Both the position numbers and the translations under genes were made by a program. The notes beneath the pieces were generated by a model. That model was not told the origin of the DNA. It did not search any database and was given only the letters and a program-made list of their open reading frames with translations. Shown piece after piece: positions 20 to 29,339 of a stretch of DNA of 64,000 bases. The first letter of the stretch is position 1. The number at the start of each line of letters is the position of its first letter. The DNA lies in the IMG/VR virus record IMGVR_UViG_3300010367_000056, positions 1 through 64,000 of that record. One strand, written 5' to 3'. The DNA comes from a virus. Taxonomy: Duplodnaviria; Heunggongvirae; Uroviricota; Caudoviricetes.

Positions 20-514
20 TTAATTTAATATTTGATCAGGATAGTTCTCTTTGATATACTGGATAATAGGATTAAGTTGCTTGATTTGTTTATCAATATA
101 AGTTGTATCATTAACTAAGTCAAGATCATCTCTATTAGCAACTCTCTCTTTTAACACACTAGAATCAGCTTCATCAAAAATCTTAAATTTTACTTCAATT
201 GTTTTATTAATATAGTCTAAAGTAGAGACTATTTTATTAATATACTTAACCTGTAAATGAGTATTATCTATAATTACGTTATTATCATAGTATAATGTTT
301 TCTCAAGTAAAGTTTGCTCAATTTCAGTAACTAAGTTTTCAATACTAATAAGATCTTTTCTCTTATAATATCCAGTAAGATCTCCAACTAATGTTTTTCT
401 AATATCATCTCTATTAATTCTTAGAGTATTAGGATTCTTTTTAATATAGTCAGTAGACCAGGTAGTTTTACCTGATCCACTAACACCAACATTAATTATT
501 ACTTGTTTCTTCAT
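20..514 (-). CDS. P-loop kinase, polynucleotide-kinase-like (kinase domain only)
   Basis: Walker A GVSGSGKTT near the N-terminus. Size and motif fit the T4 Pnk kinase / AAA_33 family. It lies immediately downstream of the RNA ligase gene. The stop codon is at 20-22. Confidence 0.5.
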   Translation of the reverse strand: MKKQVIINVGVSGSGKTTWSTDYIKKNPNTLRINRDDIRKTLVGDLTGYYKRKDLISIENLVTEIEQTLLEKTLYYDNNVIIDNTHLQVKYINKIVSTLDYINKTIEVKFKIFDEADSSVLKERVANRDDLDLVNDTTYIDKQIKQLNPIIQYIKENYPDQILN

Positions 515-1838
515 TAGAATTAGTTTGTTCTTCTTCCATGTCTTTAGTACCTTTATCTAAAGCACTAGATTCATGAGCTAAAAACTTTTTAGATTTTATT
601 TTGAAAATCAATGGTTTAGGATAATTGTCAATTCTTACACAGAATCCTTCTTCTACTATATTCTTATCAAGAATACTTGGTTGTTCAAGTAATTGATTAT
701 AGAATATATCTTCTATTTCAGTAGCAATATCACAAGTGTTTATATTCACGTTTTTATGCTTAAGAATAAACTCTTGTACAGTTCCTCTGAAATATTCAGG
801 ACAAGGAATGAATCCCATCTGACAACCTCTTTCAACCATAAAATTATAAGGAAGATCTATCTCTATACCTTGAGAATTAATATTAGATATTCTGTAAATA
901 TAAGCTATTGGTTCATCAAATCCATAAGAATATCCTCCTTGAATTTCTTCTCCACCATAAGTCTTACCTACAATCTCAAAATAAACAGCTTCTCCTTTAT
1001 TAAGTTCACCTTGAAAGTTTTTCTTAGCGAACTCAGACCAAAGATCTCCTTCTTTAAAATAATGTTGCTTACCAGGAATTTCTTCAAATCCTACTGATTT
1101 CACAACTCTCCTAGAAGCTGCTACATATTCATAATCCTCTTCAACTACTTTAATACCAAACCATTTAGCTAGTCTTTCTTTCCATGATAATTTTCTTTTA
1201 ACTAAAGTATGAAATACTCTGGCAGAAGTACCATGAAGCTTATAACTAACTACTATGAAAGTATCCAGAGCCAATTTATGAAGATTTTTCATTAAATGGG
1301 CTGTATCCATGTGTTCTGGAGCCATCTTAGAATCAATAATATCATCTAAGACTTTAGCTCTAGGGTTACTAAATCCAGTTTTACCTGGATTCATCTTTCT
1401 GATATACTTTTTACAAATTTCAATTCCATCGAGTTCATTAAATTCGTCTCCAACTTTTAAACTAGTTATATCTGTATTCTCACATACAGTAACTAAGCTC
1501 GCAATTGGCATAATGAATCCAGAGCTTATTACACCTTTAAACTTAACTGCTTTTACTCTTCCATTATCTTCAAAGAATCCTGGTTTTGTTCCAGGTTGAG
1601 AATTTAATGCAAAATGTCTAAATAAGTTATTTTCTCTTAAGAATTTAGCACTTATCTGACACTCTGAAGGGAAGAACAAATAAAGCTCATCTTCTGGTGA
1701 ATCTTTACCAACCAACACTGAATTACCCTGATAAGTAACCTCCATTAAGTTATCTAATCCATTAACTTTCTTTTTGGTAGGTAGGTTTATAACTTGACAG
1801 GTATAATTCTTACTATCATCATATATTTTCAATTGCAT
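492..1838 (-). CDS. RNA ligase, Rnl2-like
   Basis: Nucleotidyltransferase motif I KLHGTSARV (compare T4 Rnl2 KIHGTN). Motif IV-like EGFCVR and motif V-like KIKSKKF are also present. It is adjacent to the kinase, as in phage tRNA-repair modules. Confidence 0.65.
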   Translation of the reverse strand: MQLKIYDDSKNYTCQVINLPTKKKVNGLDNLMEVTYQGNSVLVGKDSPEDELYLFFPSECQISAKFLRENNLFRHFALNSQPGTKPGFFEDNGRVKAVKFKGVISSGFIMPIASLVTVCENTDITSLKVGDEFNELDGIEICKKYIRKMNPGKTGFSNPRAKVLDDIIDSKMAPEHMDTAHLMKNLHKLALDTFIVVSYKLHGTSARVFHTLVKRKLSWKERLAKWFGIKVVEEDYEYVAASRRVVKSVGFEEIPGKQHYFKEGDLWSEFAKKNFQGELNKGEAVYFEIVGKTYGGEEIQGGYSYGFDEPIAYIYRISNINSQGIEIDLPYNFMVERGCQMGFIPCPEYFRGTVQEFILKHKNVNINTCDIATEIEDIFYNQLLEQPSILDKNIVEEGFCVRIDNYPKPLIFKIKSKKFLAHESSALDKGTKDMEEEQTNSNEETSNN

Positions 1839-3478: not shown

Positions 3479-4084
3479 TTACTTCAAAATATTTTGAATA
3501 TTAAAAATCAAGTCTTTTTCTCCAGGTTTACTCCAAAGCTCTAAATTATCACTAAGTTCCATAAGACCTAATCTATCCATTAACTTATCTTTTAACCATT
3601 GAGTCTTATTAAAGATATGATAATAAATAGTATACTCTTTACCTATAACTTTCTTATTTTCTGTTACTTCAATTATAGGTGGAAACTTAGATTTAAAATC
3701 TATAGAAAGTTTAGAATATCTACCCGAAAGAACATTATCGTAATCTTCTACGAACACTTCAGGAAAATCAAGTACTACAACACAATGCTCATTTACGAGT
3801 TCGTAACTGAAGACTGCTGAAACCTGCACTTCTGCAAGTTCCAACACAATCTTCTTCATTTCTTCATGAGCCATTTTTTTATTCTTAAATAATATAAATA
3901 ATAACCTTTGATTTTCATTGAGTTTTATCATATCCATGATTGTTGGATCTTGAGTATATGTATCAACAAGTCCTATCTTTTTCAATACCTCAAAGTTATT
4001 ACCGAATATAAACCTAGTTAAAAACAACGTTGTAATATTATACTTGTCCTGAATTCTAATTTCAGAATGTGCCTGTTTTTCCAT
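3479..4084 (-). CDS. hypothetical protein
   Basis: Long ORF that abuts its neighbours with no gap. Confidence 0.5.
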   Translation of the reverse strand: MEKQAHSEIRIQDKYNITTLFLTRFIFGNNFEVLKKIGLVDTYTQDPTIMDMIKLNENQRLLFILFKNKKMAHEEMKKIVLELAEVQVSAVFSYELVNEHCVVVLDFPEVFVEDYDNVLSGRYSKLSIDFKSKFPPIIEVTENKKVIGKEYTIYYHIFNKTQWLKDKLMDRLGLMELSDNLELWSKPGEKDLIFNIQNILK

Positions 4085-4277
4085 ACTTATAACCTTTTAC
4101 ATAGTCTTGTTCAGAACCATTAAAATCTTTATCATTTTCAGCATCTAATAGACCATTTAAAAAAGCTGGAATGTCATTTATACCTTCCTTACGTAAGTTA
4201 CTCATATCTATCACTTTCACTGTCTTAAGACCTTCATCATCAATATGAAGCTCTTTTACTATTGAATCATTACTCAT
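4062..4277 (-). CDS. hypothetical small protein
   Basis: ORF in the operon. Confidence 0.35.
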   Translation of the reverse strand: MSNDSIVKELHIDDEGLKTVKVIDMSNLRKEGINDIPAFLNGLLDAENDKDFNGSEQDYVKGYKYGKTGTF

Positions 4278-4279
4278 AC

Positions 4280-5008
4280 TTAACTGTTTATCATTTCAGA
4301 ATTTACATTAACCTTATGGAGTTTAAGTAATTTGTAGTGCAATCTTAAAAGCTCCTTAGCTCGTTCTGGTGATTCACAGTTCTTCAAATATTCTCTATAA
4401 ATAACTTTTACCATTTGGAAGTTAGACATTCCTTTGGTTATTAGCTTTTTAGCTTTTACAGGCCCATATCCTTTCAAACCAATTATATTATCAGCAGCGT
4501 CACCCATAATCATTTGGATTGCTAAATTATAGTTAGCAGTCTCATTGTCAATATGAATGAACTTATTCTTTTGATAATCATAGTGTAATCCAGGAATTTG
4601 AAGCATATCCTTATCTACCGAACAAATGATTGTTCTCCCTTTAAATTTTTCTAGTTGGGAATAGGAGTAAGCATAATCGTCACTTTCTGCGTTATGTGAC
4701 TCAATAGCTCCAAAGTTTTCTACAAGATACTGATTCAATACATCTATGATAGGATGTTTTTGAGGACGTTTGCCCTTATAGTCAGGATAAATTTTATATC
4801 TAAAGTTATTTTTACCTTTCACGAATATATAATACTTTTCTAAATTATAGTTTTGCTCTATAATGTTTAAAATATCATATATTTTCTCTGAAAGTTTGGT
4901 TTCCGAGAAGAGTTGATCTTCCTCTGAACCATAACTACTAAAATATAATAAACTATCTGCGTCTATAAGAGCTATCATTGGCTCCTCATTTTTCCTTGTT
5001 CCTATCAT
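4280..5008 (-). CDS. 5'-3' exonuclease / flap endonuclease (T4 RNase H / T5 D15-like)
   Basis: N-terminal ALIDADSLLY, then GKRP and SDDYA, and an H3TH-like GDAADNIIGLKGYGPVKAKKL. Confidence 0.8.
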   Translation of the reverse strand: MIGTRKNEEPMIALIDADSLLYFSSYGSEEDQLFSETKLSEKIYDILNIIEQNYNLEKYYIFVKGKNNFRYKIYPDYKGKRPQKHPIIDVLNQYLVENFGAIESHNAESDDYAYSYSQLEKFKGRTIICSVDKDMLQIPGLHYDYQKNKFIHIDNETANYNLAIQMIMGDAADNIIGLKGYGPVKAKKLITKGMSNFQMVKVIYREYLKNCESPERAKELLRLHYKLLKLHKVNVNSEMINS

Positions 5009-11820: not shown

Positions 11821-12672
11821 TTATTCTTCAACAAAGATTTTCTCCCACTCAAAAACACCTTCATAAGATCCGACTTCTCCTCTATTACCACCTGTCTTAT
11901 CCTCATTACCCTTGAATGAAATCTTTAATTCTTCCTCGTCTTTGTATACAGAGCCTATTGCACTTACATTCCTAGCATAAATATCAGCTACTGCGCCTGT
12001 AAGAGCTATGTCTTTCACAAAAACTTCTCCTTTGTCTCCTTTAGATAACATTTTATCTTTTATGTGACATACATAAATGAAACATTTGTTAGCACATTGA
12101 CGACTAAGATTAAGAAGATCAACCATTACAGTTCTTGACCATCTCCAACCATTCTGACCTATTTCAATAACTGATTGATATTCAGTATCTCCATATTTCA
12201 GTCTTGGCCATTGAGTTGATGGTTTACCTTGTAGTGGTTGACGATTAAAAGATTTACCTTGAAGACTTTCCATATATAGTTCAGTACCAGCCCACTCAGC
12301 ATCCATATCTGCTTGAGTAATAGTATCTAAACTAACAAAGTCATAAGGTTTTCCAAGTTTAATGAGTGCATTGAGAATCCTAGTTAATGCTTTATGGCGT
12401 TCTGAAGGATCTAATATATCAGCTATATCTAAGACTTTAGTCTTTACATCCAGAGTTAATAACTCGGTAATGTCTTTAACAGAAGCTGATAAGATTCCAG
12501 AACAATCAATTACATCAACACCATCAAGAAAATCACAACCATTTTTCTCCATACTGATAATAAGATTATTCTTCAGTTTGGTTAGCATTGTTGATTTTCC
12601 TACTTTAGGTTTCCCTGAATAAAGCAAAGTGTCAGGATTACGTCTTCTCTTTTTTACTTGGAATGTACTCAT
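11821..12672 (-). CDS. RecA-fold ATPase, Sak4-like (AAA_24)
   Basis: Walker A LLYSGKPKVGKST. About 280 aa. Replication/recombination context. Confidence 0.45.
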   Translation of the reverse strand: MSTFQVKKRRRNPDTLLYSGKPKVGKSTMLTKLKNNLIISMEKNGCDFLDGVDVIDCSGILSASVKDITELLTLDVKTKVLDIADILDPSERHKALTRILNALIKLGKPYDFVSLDTITQADMDAEWAGTELYMESLQGKSFNRQPLQGKPSTQWPRLKYGDTEYQSVIEIGQNGWRWSRTVMVDLLNLSRQCANKCFIYVCHIKDKMLSKGDKGEVFVKDIALTGAVADIYARNVSAIGSVYKDEEELKISFKGNEDKTGGNRGEVGSYEGVFEWEKIFVEE

Positions 12673-12719
12673 TTATATATTCGATTTGGTTATACAATAC
12701 AATATTGGATTTAAGATTA

Positions 12720-13127
12720 TTACAAGTATTTTTCTACCCAATTAGCGATTGTCTTAAAACCAGCTTTTCTTCTTGTAGTATCATTAAGATAAACAAGATA
12801 ATCAACTACTTTATTATCATGGCTACTTACAAGTACTTTGGGTACTTTTTGCTTAACTCCATGACTAATATTTAATACAGCATGATTACCTAATTTGTTA
12901 GTATCGCATCCTAATACTACACCAGCAACTCCTAAACAACAATACCCTACTTTAGTTTCTCCACTAACCTTTTCTTCAATTTTACACAATTGTCCAGTTG
13001 TTCTAGCATAATCACCTGATCTTAAAGCTTCTAGCCATTTTCTTTTAAAAGCTTTGGGTAGTTTACGATCTTTTGCTGGAAGAGTTTTTAAATACTCTCT
13101 TGCCTGCTTACTTGTATACTCACTCAT
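12720..13127 (-). CDS. hypothetical protein
   Basis: ORF in the operon. Confidence 0.45.
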   Translation of the reverse strand: MSEYTSKQAREYLKTLPAKDRKLPKAFKRKWLEALRSGDYARTTGQLCKIEEKVSGETKVGYCCLGVAGVVLGCDTNKLGNHAVLNISHGVKQKVPKVLVSSHDNKVVDYLVYLNDTTRRKAGFKTIANWVEKYL

Positions 13128-13133
13128 AGATTA

Positions 13134-13517
13134 TTAATCTTCTTTTTCATTAACATAAGTTACTAAGAGATCATCTCCCATTTCTTTTTGAACTTCCTCA
13201 GCTACATCTTCAGGAAGATCTTTCATAGCTACAATTCTTGTTTCAACACCATTAAATGCTGTATTTAAGAATAATTGTAACTCTTCATCAGTTCCTTCTT
13301 TCATGTACTGTCTCATCACATTAACATCAGTAGCATATTTCTTAATATCTTCCTGAGCTTGAACAAGCTTAGTTAAAGATAATATTGCCATCCCAACAAC
13401 CTTAGCTAATTCTTCATTCTTAGATGTGAATTCATACTGAGATTTTGGCATTGACAAACAATACAAATCTACTGTACCTTCTTGTTTATTAGACATATTT
13501 GATTTTTGATTGGTCAA
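13134..13517 (-). CDS. hypothetical acidic protein
   Basis: ORF in the operon. Confidence 0.45.
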   Translation of the reverse strand: MTNQKSNMSNKQEGTVDLYCLSMPKSQYEFTSKNEELAKVVGMAILSLTKLVQAQEDIKKYATDVNVMRQYMKEGTDEELQLFLNTAFNGVETRIVAMKDLPEDVAEEVQKEMGDDLLVTYVNEKED

Positions 13518-23219: not shown

Positions 23220-24059
23220 TTACTTGTTATTTAACTGAATCATTGGCATTGTACCACTACCAAACATATATTGAGGTAAATGACCATCCCATCTTTCAGC
23301 TTTGATTTTCTCAACAAACTGAGGAGAATTTTTCAAAGCCTCATTTACAACTTCAATACCTCTAGCTTCTGATTGCTTATTAATCATATTAACAGCAGAA
23401 TCTTTCTTAGCATTAGTAATATCAATCTGTGATTGAGCCTGAGCTACAGCAACACCAGCTAAAGCGGCTTGTGCTTCTTGCACAGCTCTTGCTTTAGATG
23501 CAATTGCAGCCTTTAAAGTTTCATCAGGTACAAGATTTGCAGTAAACTGAGTAATCTGGAAATAAGGTTGTAATTCTGATTGTAATTTAGCTAAAATAGC
23601 AGCATCATAACCAGCTTGATTATTTAATATACTATCAGGTGAAAATGTATTAGTAACTTCTCTAATAGCTGTAAGCATAGAAGTTCTAATAAATCCTTCT
23701 TCCAAAGAGGATAAACCCAATCTATATCTGGAAAACATACTACCTACTTCTCCAGCAGCTAGATTGTAATTGAATGTAGGATGTACAGTAAAGACAATTC
23801 CTCCTTTCGCAGGAACATTGTAAGGATCATACTCCTTATGTTGTTGGAAAGTAGGAAACTCATACACTTTCTGAGCTAATCTCCAATAAAAGCACCAACC
23901 AGTCACATACTCAGTTTTTGCAATACCTTGATTACCACCAGTCATGTTGACTTTAATACCTACATTACCAGCATCAATTCTCTCTATACCTACTAACATA
24001 GAGAATACAATAAATAATACTCCAATTACTGCTAAACGCAGTTTTGTTTTGTTGCTCAT
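23220..24059 (-). CDS. SPFH/band-7 (stomatin/prohibitin-like) membrane protein
   Basis: N-terminal TM helix (LRLAVIGVLFIVFSMLVGI) followed by an SPFH-like core, then a coiled-coil Ala/Gln-rich C-terminus. Confidence 0.7.
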   Translation of the reverse strand: MSNKTKLRLAVIGVLFIVFSMLVGIERIDAGNVGIKVNMTGGNQGIAKTEYVTGWCFYWRLAQKVYEFPTFQQHKEYDPYNVPAKGGIVFTVHPTFNYNLAAGEVGSMFSRYRLGLSSLEEGFIRTSMLTAIREVTNTFSPDSILNNQAGYDAAILAKLQSELQPYFQITQFTANLVPDETLKAAIASKARAVQEAQAALAGVAVAQAQSQIDITNAKKDSAVNMINKQSEARGIEVVNEALKNSPQFVEKIKAERWDGHLPQYMFGSGTMPMIQLNNK

Positions 24060-24927: not shown

Positions 24928-25110
24928 TATTAGGTCACTTGATTTAGTGACTCCACCACCAATTTAATTTTTGAGTAAATTGGAACTCTAAGACTATCCC
25001 TATGGCCTACAGATTACTCACAACAGCCATACTTTCGGGGCATGGTTCCCTGCACGAAACCAGAGAGTTTTAAGGTATTTACCAAATACTGAGAATGTCT
25101 TGGGTATAAG

Positions 25111-25193
25111 TGGGGGCCAGAGGAGTCGAACCTCCACACTTTACAGCAATAGGCTCATACGCCTACCGTGGCTACCAATTTCACCAAACCCCC
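25111..25193 (-). tRNA. tRNA gene with long variable region and non-canonical anticodon loop (isotype unresolved)
   Basis: Acceptor GGGGGTT/GGCCCCC and T-arm GGAGG-TTCGACT-CCTCT. The anticodon stem TAGGC/GCCTA encloses only 6 nt (GTATGA). The alternative 4-bp stem leaves 8 nt (CGTATGAG). No 7-nt loop can be drawn. Confidence 0.55.
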
Positions 25194-25632
25194 TAAAAAT
25201 TTTACCATTGTTTGAGAGAAATTAGATATCTCTGCCAGCACGGCAGCCTTCTCTAATCTCTCTCCAGGTGAGGGCGCAACACCTGTCTTGCAAGAATTTA
25301 AGTTACAAACATTCCGCTTACAACTACAGAAGTCTCAAGTTTACTTTCAAAATACTCAATGATCTCTTTAGCAAGTTCAATGCCATATTCATGTCCATGA
25401 TATGAAAATGACTTCTGATCTCTCAAAACTGTTGAGTAATAGTACTTTTTAAAGTTTTCTAATAGTTCTTTTGTAAAAATAAGATCTATCATATAATAAA
25501 TTAAAAGGATGGGAGATTATTGTAAGCATTTTTGGTTTTAAAGACCAAAGCCTAGATTTCAGGTTCCATTCCTGTGGGCGTTAGATGCTCTCCAACATCA
25601 AACGCTTTATCTTACAATATTATCATTCCTAG

Positions 25633-26056
25633 TGGAGCTGAGGGGACTCGAACCCCTGTCCAAACAATCTAAAAGAATCATAGTTATCTTATATGCTTAT
25701 CTAGTAATTCCCTACTAGAAGGTAGCACCTTTCATTTACTTGCAAGATGTTGAAAAGCCTAGCCCCACTGAAGGGATTCAAACAGCTTAAACTGCAAAGC
25801 AAGAGTATAGTTTAACTATTTCGGTGAACTATACCAGAAAGTCCCTATCTCTTTTTACCATGAGATGGTGGGTGATTAAGCCAGAGCAAGCTCAGTCTCA
25901 AACAGTTGAGCTAAAGTAGCATCAACATCTTCACCTACAGTTATAGAAGAAACTTCTACATTTATTTTTGATTCACATTCATTAAGGCTCTATAGAATCA
26001 TTGAGCCTGCATACCTATAATCCTCATAATTTGCTGTCAAAACCAAAAACAGCCCC
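25633..26056 (-). ncRNA. ssrA: candidate tmRNA (SsrA-like), about 424 nt
   Basis: Minus-sense 5' end GGGGCTGTTTTTGGTTTTGACAGC (compare E. coli GGGGCUGAUUCUGGAUUCGAC). The 3' end GGACAGGGGTTCGAGTCCCCTCAGCTCCA (compare GGACGCGGGUUCAACUCCCGCCAGCUCCACCA) forms a 7-bp acceptor with the 5' end. An internal tag frame reads ...ATLAQLFETELALA followed by TAA, at about 25876-25935. Confidence 0.55.
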
Positions 26057-27086: not shown

Positions 27087-27386
27087 TTAGGACTTTTTGG
27101 GTTTTTGGTAATGCTTTTTCTTCTCTTTAGGAGTATTACCAGAGCCAGTACTATCAGGAATTCCACCAGTGTGTTCAATCTCATATTGAAGTTTTTTCCT
27201 TTCCTTAATAGCTCCCTTACCATCTCCATATATGAGATCCAGTTTTAGAAGTTTTTGCTTAGGAGATAACTTCTTAAAACCTTCCTGTCTTTCGAGTGCT
27301 TCTTCTCTTTTTTCAGCTTTAGTCTTCATTGTATCAGATTTTGTAATTAAAGAACCATATCCATAGAAGGTTTTGATGTACTCCAC
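27087..27386 (-). CDS. hypothetical basic protein
   Basis: ORF. Overlaps the upstream gene end by about 40 nt. Confidence 0.35.
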   Translation of the reverse strand: MEYIKTFYGYGSLITKSDTMKTKAEKREEALERQEGFKKLSPKQKLLKLDLIYGDGKGAIKERKKLQYEIEHTGGIPDSTGSGNTPKEKKKHYQKPKKS

Positions 27387-28471
27387 TTATTCTTAGTAAG
27401 TTTATACATAACTTTCTTCTTAGATTTAATGTTTTCATCGTCATCGTACTCATAAACCAGTTCCTCATATATAATCTTATCTCCATCATTATATTTAAGC
27501 TCAGCATGATAGTTAACATTTGGAATATAATGACTTATATGATCAATCTCATGAGGAAGAGGTTTGTTAAGTTCAACTTCTTCTTGATATTCCCACTTAT
27601 TCTCAATCATAACATATTTGTTATATGATTGTTTTCTCTCATGGAAATTAAATATATCCTTAAAAGTAGAATATGGCTTTCTATGTACATTGATCTCATC
27701 AATAATTGATGTTAAGATGTCAATTGTGCAATCAGGAATATGAAGATTATCTTCAAGATCCTTAGCAAATTTCTTATTCTTAAGTTTATCTGCTACAATA
27801 GCATGAAATACTTCAGGATTCATGAAATTATATTTCTTATAATATCTGATCCTTGAAGGTCTATCAAGAAGTTTGTCACTCACATCATCATTACAAGTCA
27901 AAATAGTTAATCTCTTATGCTTAGGAGTGAATGTACCATCAAGCAAGCTTAAAAAGCTACTTTGAGTATGAAACTTATTCTCAGCATCATTAGCTACAGG
28001 AGCTGGAAATAATTTCTCAAACTCATCTACAAATAGACAATAATCTTGTTTAATTTGTTGAAGATAACTAGAGAAGTCTGCAATTTTTGGAATAACTCCA
28101 TTAATACAAACAATTGGTAATCTACTCTCAATTGCTAATTGTTTAGCAGTTACTGATTTACCTTGACCTTTATAACCAATAAGACCAACACCAATATTCA
28201 TATTAGCTTGGCTAAGTCTTAGTGTAGTAAGAACTTGATTTCTAAACTCTTGGTCAAAATCATAGATTCTAGGTGGAAGTGTAAGAGCTTGTCCTTTTGT
28301 CATCCACATTTCACCATATACATGATCTACATTAAAATTATAAACCTGACCTGGTTGTAGCTCTTCTGTAATTATCACAGCATCAGGATAGAAATTCATT
28401 CTACCCATTGATTCAATAATAGTCATCTTACCTGGTTTGGTAATATGATGTTTAGCTAACGGTTGTGACAT
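27347..28471 (-). CDS. AAA+ ATPase
   Basis: Walker A GLIGYKGQGKSVTAK and Walker B LFVDEFEKL. Confidence 0.55.
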   Translation of the reverse strand: MSQPLAKHHITKPGKMTIIESMGRMNFYPDAVIITEELQPGQVYNFNVDHVYGEMWMTKGQALTLPPRIYDFDQEFRNQVLTTLRLSQANMNIGVGLIGYKGQGKSVTAKQLAIESRLPIVCINGVIPKIADFSSYLQQIKQDYCLFVDEFEKLFPAPVANDAENKFHTQSSFLSLLDGTFTPKHKRLTILTCNDDVSDKLLDRPSRIRYYKKYNFMNPEVFHAIVADKLKNKKFAKDLEDNLHIPDCTIDILTSIIDEINVHRKPYSTFKDIFNFHERKQSYNKYVMIENKWEYQEEVELNKPLPHEIDHISHYIPNVNYHAELKYNDGDKIIYEELVYEYDDDENIKSKKKVMYKLTKNKWSTSKPSMDMVL

Positions 28472-29018: not shown

Positions 29019-29339
29019 TTAAAATTTAGTATCATTTGTAGGTTCTGTCACCCTAACATAATCCTTTTCGAGTTTTTGTTTTACCTTCTTAGCTAAATGC
29101 TTCTCAGCATCTTCAAAATATTTAAATTTATGATGAATCTTAGTACCTTCAGTACCTATTCTACCAAAGTGAAACTCAACTAAATAAGGAAAATCACTCA
29201 TCTTATCAGGATTATCTTTTATATACATATAATAATACTTATAATGAGTACTAGTTTTACATTCAAGATAAGTACCTGTAGTTGAGAATCTAGCTTCTAT
29301 TTTCTTTAACTTAATTCCCAAACTAAATGGTTTTTCCAT
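29019..29339 (-). CDS. WGR-domain-like small protein
   Basis: FHFGRIGTEGTK...KFKYFEDAEKHLAKKVKQKLEKDY resembles the WGR motif and its fold context. Confidence 0.35.
   Translation of the reverse strand: MEKPFSLGIKLKKIEARFSTTGTYLECKTSTHYKYYYMYIKDNPDKMSDFPYLVEFHFGRIGTEGTKIHHKFKYFEDAEKHLAKKVKQKLEKDYVRVTEPTNDTKF

Follow-up and report, generated by a model that had tools for sequence, protein, structure and literature searches.

The window analysed here, the whole stretch of 64,000 nucleotides (nt) forming positions 1 to 64,000 of the virus record IMGVR_UViG_3300010367_000056, carries on its minus strand, at 25633–26056, a complete one-piece gene for transfer-messenger RNA (tmRNA, or SsrA), which is not a chance match. 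The gene is 424 nt long, from G1 to the discriminator A, and is recognised by both ARAGORN and Rfam. Its architecture is conserved among related phages, and both the structure of the RNA and its tag reading frame are under selection. With a probability of roughly 85%, it is a genuine and functional phage-encoded tmRNA of the Bacteroidota type, stably kept in a clade of crAss-like phages with genomes of ~125 kb.

ARAGORN calls a tmRNA at 25632–26056 on the minus strand, and the Rfam model RF00023 matches 25630–26056 over its full length (model positions 1–374 of 374) at 74.6 bits (E=3.9e-27), against a gathering score of 47 bits. A preliminary description of this DNA, made from the letters alone, had proposed a phage-borne tmRNA and named both programs as checks; the proposal is supported by each of them, and by covariation among 9–10 orthologues. 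As that description stated, the minus strand starts (GGGGCTGTTTTTGGTTTTGACAGC at 26056) and ends (GGACAGGGGTTCGAGTCCCCTCAGCTCCA at 25633) in the manner of SsrA, and the two ends pair as a 7-bp acceptor stem in which the sole wobble is G3·U (26054 with 25636). It was also right that CCA is not encoded, the bases past the discriminator (25632–25630) reading CUA (CTA in the DNA). This is no peculiarity of the gene, however: encoded CCA is likewise absent from all eight tRNA genes of the window and from L090, a viral-contig tmRNA discussed below, and its absence therefore points to host-type tRNA maturation and not to a defect. Among the orthologues the same place is taken by CUA, CAA, CUG or CUU. 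A 'tRNA-His' called by ARAGORN at 25632–25711 is an artefact, being the tRNA-like domain of the tmRNA read a second time, as a tRNA.

Orthologues were found by following homologues of an adjacent ATPase to their encoding contigs, and by two pattern scans. The family has 12 members: the window, L122, L126, L127, L128, L129, L130, L131, L142, L179, L183 and L184 (L139 and L181 duplicate L129, and L180 duplicates L142). The RNAs of the orthologues are 64–78% identical to that of the window in pairwise comparison, a divergence sufficient for structure to be tested. A common gene order, consisting of the AAA ATPase, small open reading frames (ORFs), the tmRNA, a Leu-type tRNA, Band_7 and, further along, PolA, is shared by L122, L126, L127, L128, L129, L130, L131, L183 and L184. 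In L142/L180 the tmRNA adjoins the Leu-type tRNA, the ATPase side lying outside the sequence compared. Members reached through the ATPase lie on contigs of 25–130 kb, five of them of ~125–130 kb.

The tRNA-like domain and the P2 helix were tested on nine aligned sequences, in each of which the 5′ and 3′ parts had been concatenated. In the MAFFT alignment the 5′ ends were anchored by an artificial constant prefix, without which the acceptor stems misalign. Across the acceptor stem, T-stem and three-part P2, 92.3% of cells are paired and in 17 of 39 pairs both partners vary; none of 500 shuffles reaches any of five pairing measures, and partners slid by 1–3 columns as a control pair at 40–50%. 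The acceptor stem is formed by GGGGCUG (26050–26056, with G3 at 26054 in a G3·U70-type wobble) and CAGCUCC (25640–25634), followed by the discriminator A at 25633. All seven of its pairs form in 100% of cells and three are compensatory (positions 4, 5 and 6), position 5 varying as C-G, A-U, G-C and U-A. All nine sequences have the alanine identity pair G3·U70, and the discriminator A does not vary among the aligned sequences. The T-arm (25641–25657) has a stem AGGGG/CCCCU and a 7-nt loop UUCGAGU; its five pairs are likewise 100% paired, two of them with compensatory change. P2, which replaces the anticodon arm, is built from a 5′ strand at 26009–26036 (RNA nt 21–48) and a 3′ strand at 25658–25696 (RNA nt 361–399) that holds the conserved AAGCAUAUAAGA and GUUUGGAC motifs, found elsewhere only in L090 among 32 viral-contig tmRNAs compared; 12 of its 27 pairs show changes on both sides, with 85.6–100% of cells paired. 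These same elements, acceptor, T-arm and P2, are recovered by a plain minimum free energy (MFE) fold, a model that leaves pseudoknots out.

The first pseudoknot, PK1, spans 25970–26007 (RNA nt 50–87), with stems GGCUC/GAGCC and GAUUC/GAAUC, and ends 10 nt upstream of the resume codon. Among eight orthologues 93.8% of its cells are paired, seven of ten pairs are compensatory and none of 500 shuffles reaches the observed values. This count omits L122 and L184, which have a one-base register shift; in these, PK1 is seen by eye as AGAGC/GCUCU with GGAUA/UAUUC and as GUGC/GCAC with GGAUA/UAUUC, respectively. The acceptor, T-arm, P2 and PK1 are thus kept by compensatory change, and selection acts on the structure. 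PK2 is an H-type pseudoknot at 25847–25871 (RNA nt 186–210), with stems CCA/UGG and AUCUC/GAGAU and an A-rich loop. In nine of 11 members the top-scoring H-type pseudoknot follows this layout and begins 7–9 nt past the stop codon, with an A-rich third loop and stems that differ in sequence; each PK2 taken singly scores only moderately better than shuffles. Of the pseudoknots expected of a tmRNA, PK1 is supported by covariation and PK2 by its recurring layout. The variable 3′ body at 25699–25846 occupies the site of PK3/PK4 in canonical tmRNAs, and its hairpins GUAUAGUU/AACUAUAC and CUAGUA/UACUAG show covariation on visual inspection. Within the family, conservation is highest in the tRNA-like domain.

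The tag frame lies at 25876–25959 on the minus strand. It opens with GUA (25959–25957, RNA nt 98–100), has 27 codons encoding VEVSSITVGEDVDATLAQLFETELALA and closes with UAA at 25878–25876; in context, AAAAAUAAAU is directly followed by GUA…GCU UAA. The start is placed at GUA because several comparisons agree on it. The Rfam alignment sets the E. coli resume codon on the GUA of the window with high posterior probability. The nine codons upstream of the start chosen by ARAGORN (VEVSSITVG) are kept as protein, with synonymous changes, and ARAGORN itself picks the upstream GUA/GCA site in L127, L129 and L184. The resume context is shared as well. GCA (Ala) is the canonical tmRNA resume codon, and the resume site of 11 orthologues is GUA in nine and GCA in two (L179 and L184). 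UA(A/G)AU precedes it in all but L142, which has CAAAU, so that A stands at −4 in all and U at −5 in all except L142; in E. coli tmRNA the corresponding U85 and A86 (positions −5 and −4) set the frame (PMC2481249). The tag given by ARAGORN, EDVDATLAQLFETELALA, which starts at Glu, was rejected on these comparative data, its start lying too far downstream. The preliminary description had correctly recognised an internal frame ending in …ATLAQLFETELALA-TAA and a non-canonical tag, but its tag, (A)TLAQLFETELALA with the start at the marked Ala, is rejected on the same data: the true start is upstream, the tag about twice as long and its first codon Val.

In the orthologues the tag reads VEVSSITVGENVDATLAQLFETELALA (L122), VEVSSITVGDNGNIDSLLNSLAYSTEEVADLELA (L126), VEVSNITVGSEGNVDSLLASLAYEVEAEVAFA (L127), VEKSNITVGDNGNIDTLLSSLSYEVEAEITLA (L128), VETSTIEVGTDIDEMLADIFSEELELA (L129), VEKSNITVGDNGNIDTLLSSLSYEVESELALA (L130), VEKSNITVGENGNIDSLLNSLSYEAEEVGAELCFA (L142), AEVSDITVGDNGNVDSFLSSLSYEVEAELAYA (L179), VEVSSITVGEDVDATLAQIFGITEEVVA (L183) and AEVSNYSVGVNGNVDSLLNSLSYEVKPELAYA (L184). 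Family tags are 27–35 amino acids (aa) long, with 4–9 acidic and 0–1 basic residues. Residues E2, S4, V8, G9, D13, L16 and the terminal Ala (A27 in the window) are invariant, and the last two residues are hydrophobic-Ala in every member, never Ala-Ala. Throughout the family, numerous stops interrupt the two alternative frames. Pairwise differences at codon positions 1, 2 and 3 number 476, 329 and 660, and the ratio of non-synonymous to synonymous differences per site (pN/pS) is ~0.54, uncorrected; the frame is therefore maintained as coding, under moderate constraint.

The way the RNA would work in an infected cell is predicted from its sequence, including its expression and charging, its partnership with host SmpB and what becomes of the tagged proteins. 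The tmRNA would be cut from a longer transcript, as would the neighbouring phage tRNAs, and receive its CCA from a host enzyme. Host alanyl-tRNA synthetase (AlaRS) would charge it with alanine through G3·U70 and A73, after which host SmpB and EF-Tu would deliver it to ribosomes stalled on broken or stop-less messages. Translation would resume at GUA, adding Ala and then VEVSSITVGEDVDATLAQLFETELALA, and termination at UAA would free the ribosome. The benefit to the phage may be that ribosomes are kept available during infection. Since no SmpB was found in the window or beside the orthologues, the RNA presumably works with the host protein, and presumably also uses host AlaRS, EF-Tu and CCA-adding enzyme. 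The eight tRNA genes, RNA ligase and kinase of the window fit a strategy of translation despite damaged mRNAs or tRNAs. Rescue together with the tagging of host or defence proteins, the role suggested in the preliminary description, is plausible.

Several results weigh against a functional tmRNA of this kind. SmpB is absent from Pfam scans of 49 window ORFs, and a search with E. coli SmpB of 913 ORF fragments from the window and 16 loci gave a best E=1.9; the query was verified as PF01668 (1.5e-57), and the search covered 64 kb of the ~125-kb genome of the window phage. A scan around the tmRNA for sigma-70 promoters and terminators found no more sites than in shuffles. The MFE z-score of the whole RNA is only −1.57, and the Rfam posterior probability is low over the 3′ body past PK2. 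Selection on the tag peptide is moderate. Finally, the tag of the window ends in A-L-A, whereas a host-type degron ends in L-A-A, so that degradation of the products may not be assured.

The fate of the tagged proteins is the weakest step of the proposed mechanism. A long, acidic tag with a hydrophobic-Ala end most likely still marks its product for proteolysis. The main alternative, considered unlikely, is that the tmRNA works while its tag is not a host-type degradation signal; it would then replace or out-compete host tmRNA and give the rescued products another fate, such as escape from ClpXP, routing to Lon or to a tail-specific protease, or an activity of the acidic amphipathic peptide itself. 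The tags are far from the commonest tag length of 10 aa (PMC11915505) and from the GETNYALAA of Bacteroides, and their strong acidity points the same way, as does conservation that is N-terminal and central (E2, S4, V8, G9, D13 and L16) and so extends beyond the C-terminus. Their consistent hydrophobic-Ala end also has parallels in other phage tags that end in V-A, L-A or F-A: those of the crAss-like cr7_1 (DNVNNIVDYTNVA), of phi14:2 (GSSVQKLAMVA, called by ARAGORN only) and of L001 (…KVALA) and L188 (…SVAFA), two large contigs that fall outside the classification made here. Non-polar, Ala-ended C-termini are nevertheless a general hallmark of tmRNA degrons, the tag profile has no significant match to PDB structures or known motifs (best E=0.55), and Pfam scans of the window ORFs found no protease or adaptor gene near the tmRNA. 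The ssrA tags of Mollicutes, of ~27 aa and ending in …YAFA, are reported to work as degrons for Lon (Gur and Sauer 2008). The Mollicutes tags resemble those of the phage family in length and in a hydrophobic-Ala-hydrophobic-Ala end (compare LALA, VAFA and LAYA among the phage tags); they differ in having no sequence relationship to them, and the RNA core of the window is Bacteroidota-like. It is doubtful that the message part has been re-engineered to give truncated proteins an acidic amphipathic tail of 27–35 residues, in place of …YALAA, with a phage-specific fate or activity, of which evasion of ClpXP-type proteolysis, use of another protease or adaptor, or blunting of a host response that needs normal ssrA tagging would be examples.

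There is only a slight chance that the RNA acts mainly as a decoy or competitor, in which the tRNA-like domain soaks up host SmpB, serves as a target or decoy for RNA-directed host defences or inhibits host trans-translation, and tagging is incidental. A mini-tmRNA of this kind is known from mycobacteriophage DS6A, which has no tag frame and inhibits the endogenous tmRNA (PMC11915505); the strong conservation of the tRNA-like domain and the presence of an RNA ligase and a kinase in the phage would suit such a function. A pure decoy needs neither a tag frame nor a resume context, PK1 or stop codon, yet no complete orthologue has lost any of these, and substitutions follow a coding pattern, which argues against it. 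That the gene is a non-functional remnant, a decaying copy of host ssrA or an attachment-site fragment from a temperate ancestor, is very improbable: prophages do often integrate in ssrA and carry its 3′ end, and about half of 121 viral loci with the 3′ motif hold no full tmRNA, but the present gene is full length, genome-internal and syntenic in all complete members whose flanks were compared, neither the Pfam scans of 49 window ORFs nor the Pfam lists of related loci show an integrase, and compensatory pairing and an intact tag frame at an identity of only 64–78% contradict decay.

As to the origin of this phage tmRNA, the most economical reading of the sequences is that a Bacteroidota tmRNA was captured by an ancestor of the phage clade and that its message part lengthened and diversified afterwards. 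When 32 distinct one-piece tmRNAs from viral contigs were compared, the family motifs UUGACAGC, AUAAGCAURUA and GUUUGGAC turned up in just one, L090 (tag GENNFALAA); like the gene of the window it also encodes no CCA, although the two RNAs are only 52% identical. In common with the Bacteroidota-type SsrA (RF00023), the window RNA has a G3·U70 and A73 acceptor, a T-arm, P2, PK1, a tag frame, PK2 and a further body. The differences are these: the tag has 27 aa in place of nine, is very acidic and ends in L-A-L-A and not in A-L-A-A, the resume codon is GUA (Val) and not GGN (Gly), and the gene belongs to a crAss-like phage of lytic type. The native Bacteroides tag, GETNYALAA, is a strong degron in its own cells (bioRxiv 10.1101/2025.03.18.644028).

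The preliminary description called tmRNA uncommon in phages, which is true, but such genes are already documented, in 402 of 18,146 phage genomes (PMC9004378) and in huge phages, which carry both tmRNA and SmpB (PMC7162821); the share among isolate phage genomes is about 2.3%, and further carriers are Melnitz and pelagiphages. The tmRNA database also covers viruses (PMC11915505). Phage tmRNA has been proposed to maintain hijacked translation or to serve selective tagging (PMC9004378, PMC7162821). The gene of the window resembles these in being a phage copy of a host rescue RNA, mostly found among tRNA genes; it differs from the huge phages in that no SmpB was found alongside it, and from the two-piece, riboswitch-linked tmRNA of phage Melnitz in being one-piece. 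RefSeq lists 'transfer-messenger RNA, SsrA' in the crAss-like phages cr7_1 (NC_055895) and cr124_1 (NC_055899), which by terminase are the closest crAss-like records to the window after Lbo-JY46. There, too, the tmRNA lies within a Crassvirales genome near tRNA genes; that of cr7_1, however, is a circularly permuted two-piece tmRNA (RF04321, 66.4 bits) whose tag, DNVNNIVDYTNVA, has 13 aa, and it matches family member L129 only at the T-arm/acceptor end (~37 nt). The tag family of the window is not described in PMC9004378 or PMC7162821, and a full-text literature search found no paper on the function of tmRNA in crAss-like phages or on this tag family. Phage tmRNAs, crAss-like ones included, are thus already known, and the long, acidic, conserved tag family is the distinctive element: 12 phage tmRNAs keep a long acidic peptide under selection, unlike the tag of the probable host phylum. 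The gene offers a comparatively anchored case of a virus that keeps its own rescue RNA and would lean on host SmpB, AlaRS and CCA addition, and it poses the question of what a phage gains from a tmRNA: simply more capacity for rescue, or a different fate for the proteins rescued.

The window encodes a crAss-type major capsid protein (PF23898 Crass_capsid, 3.5e-28), a portal protein (phrog_6547, 9e-98) and a large terminase (phrog_6681, 1e-72), together with a family-A DNA polymerase (PolA), a DnaB-like helicase and an RNA ligase. Because its terminase is only 25–28% identical to those of classified Crassvirales, and 33.6% to that of Leptolyngbya phage Lbo-JY46, the sequence places the window in a distant crAss-like lineage and not among the classified members of the order. 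In Lbo-JY46, the nearest isolate by terminase, no tmRNA was found in the 75 kb examined, which flank the middle 50 kb. Initiation signals point to a Bacteroidota host, in line with a crAss-like phage: Shine-Dalgarno-like motifs occur at two of 68 window ORFs, compared with 9.7% of background windows, and adenine makes up 56–79% of positions −13 to −10 of ORF starts, with a further A-rich peak at −3. Depletion of Shine-Dalgarno motifs together with an A-rich upstream peak is the Bacteroidota initiation signature.

The tmRNA sits in a minus-strand early/middle block, among tRNA genes. Minus-strand genes for an AAA+ ATPase (27347–28471) and a Band_7/SPFH protein (23220–24059) flank it, with a WGR-domain protein (29019–29339) nearby, and in most relatives, too, Band_7/SPFH, AAA+ ATPase and WGR-domain genes flank the tmRNA. 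In bacteria, proteins of the Band_7 type act as regulators of the protease FtsH. At one end of the window a P-loop kinase (AAA_33, 1.4e-15; 20–514, minus strand) adjoins the RNA ligase (phrog_968, 1.9e-59; 492–1838, minus strand); the pair resembles the RNA repair pair of T4 and might counter host anticodon nucleases.

Other routes to relatives gave little or led to different genes. A locus-level search with the neighbouring ATPase found none, the protein search route succeeding instead, and a blastn search with the tmRNA region found no nucleotide match in 50,697 phage records. When L001 and L129 served as queries against phage records, the T-arm/acceptor end alone was matched. The exact 3′-end pattern found in IMG/VR one unrelated tmRNA, L001, and a degenerate version found 121 viral loci with 61 tmRNAs, which resemble that of the window only in the last ~35 nt and were rejected as orthologues. 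A family-specific pattern found three contigs in JGI metagenomes and one in 185,579 species genomes, the latter carrying a different, intron-split tmRNA in a Bacteroidaceae metagenome-assembled genome (MAG). No tmRNA lies within 10 kb of the most distant ATPase (L182), and the contig of L185 ends too soon for its presence to be judged. ARAGORN missed L128 (565 nt), L130 and L131; the first was recovered by Rfam and the other two by a family nhmmer profile. As ARAGORN also misplaces the tag start in several members, the comparison corrects the annotation of these genes.

Two family tmRNAs are longer than the others, those of L128 (11837–12401, 565 nt) and L183 (11977–12491, 515 nt), and have structured inserts of ~65 nt and ~84 nt, respectively, between the PK1 hairpin and its downstream strand. 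The tmRNA of L179 (1–557 of Ga0079218_10434237, 1133 bp) is without its first ~12 nt, the 5′ acceptor strand included, and the sequence upstream is coding-like; this is probably an assembly chimera, or possibly some junction.

In the sister phages L130 (12331–13471) and L131 (12149–13290) the family tmRNA is split inside the T-loop, between …GGGGUUCGAUU and CCCCUCAUCUCCA, in contrast to the uninterrupted gene of the window. Both are interrupted by a group I intron of 738 nt (RF00028, 81.8 bits), at 12721–13458 and 12540–13277, respectively, whose opposite strand holds an ORF for an HNH endonuclease. Neither gene is detected by RF00023 or by ARAGORN. Intron-form tmRNA genes number 883 in the database, 4.1% of them with a homing endonuclease gene (PMC11915505). 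The Bacteroidaceae-binned contig found in the species genomes (CAZLVK010000007.1, 120 kb and tRNA-rich) holds the L188 tmRNA at ~1–950 on the minus strand, apparently interrupted at the same place in the T-loop. With L001 it represents a second phage-type group, whose tags are long and basic and have a hydrophobic-Ala-hydrophobic-Ala end (GNIFNKVVNKVKSLFAVNSVAFA in L188 and GNRILNTLRNLFTNKVALA in L001). For L001 (3025–3391) the ARAGORN tag ANNEIYLGYFI was rejected, as it conflicts with the Rfam-aligned frame GNRILNTLRNLFTNKVALA. In Cellulophaga phage phi14:2 (L190, 1084–1553; KC821624, ~4031–4500), ARAGORN calls a 470-nt candidate tmRNA with the tag GSSVQKLAMVA, which has no Rfam match at the gathering threshold and lies where GenBank lists only small hypothetical ORFs.

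Some tRNAs of the window and its relatives are unusual. No suppressor tRNA or recoding was seen in the window, and the standard code leaves its long late genes intact. Suppressor-type tRNAs do occur in sister phages, with anticodon UUA (L127, 5695–5765; L183, 559–632), CUA (L129, 4255–4328) and UCA (L131, 6659–6733), and such tRNAs for all three stops suggest stop-codon recoding somewhere in the clade. Read-through of host stop codons by these tRNAs, if it occurs, would create non-stop complexes, for which more rescue might be needed.

Just downstream of the tmRNA, at 25110–25193 on the minus strand, lies the Leu-type tRNA, which has a long variable arm and an anticodon loop that is not of 7 nt: the loop, CGUAUGAG, has 8 nt, or 6 nt if the C-G pair closes. 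The loops of its orthologues are CAUUUGGG in L122 (13836–13919) and CAUCUGAG in L127 (12071–12154), and the anticodons would be AUG, UUG and CUG if U33 is the third loop base. In six other relatives the position is occupied by an ordinary tRNA-Leu (UAG or AAG). A Phe-like tRNA (GAA) at 33263–33335 on the minus strand has an 8-nt anticodon loop, CGUGAAAU, and its orthologue in L122 has one of 7 nt, CCGAAAU, that lacks U33. Further tRNAs with 6- or 8-nt loops are found in L122 ('tttt'), L183 ('aa' and 'ac'), L185 ('ttgc') and L130, where 'tcaa' compares with 'tca' in L131.

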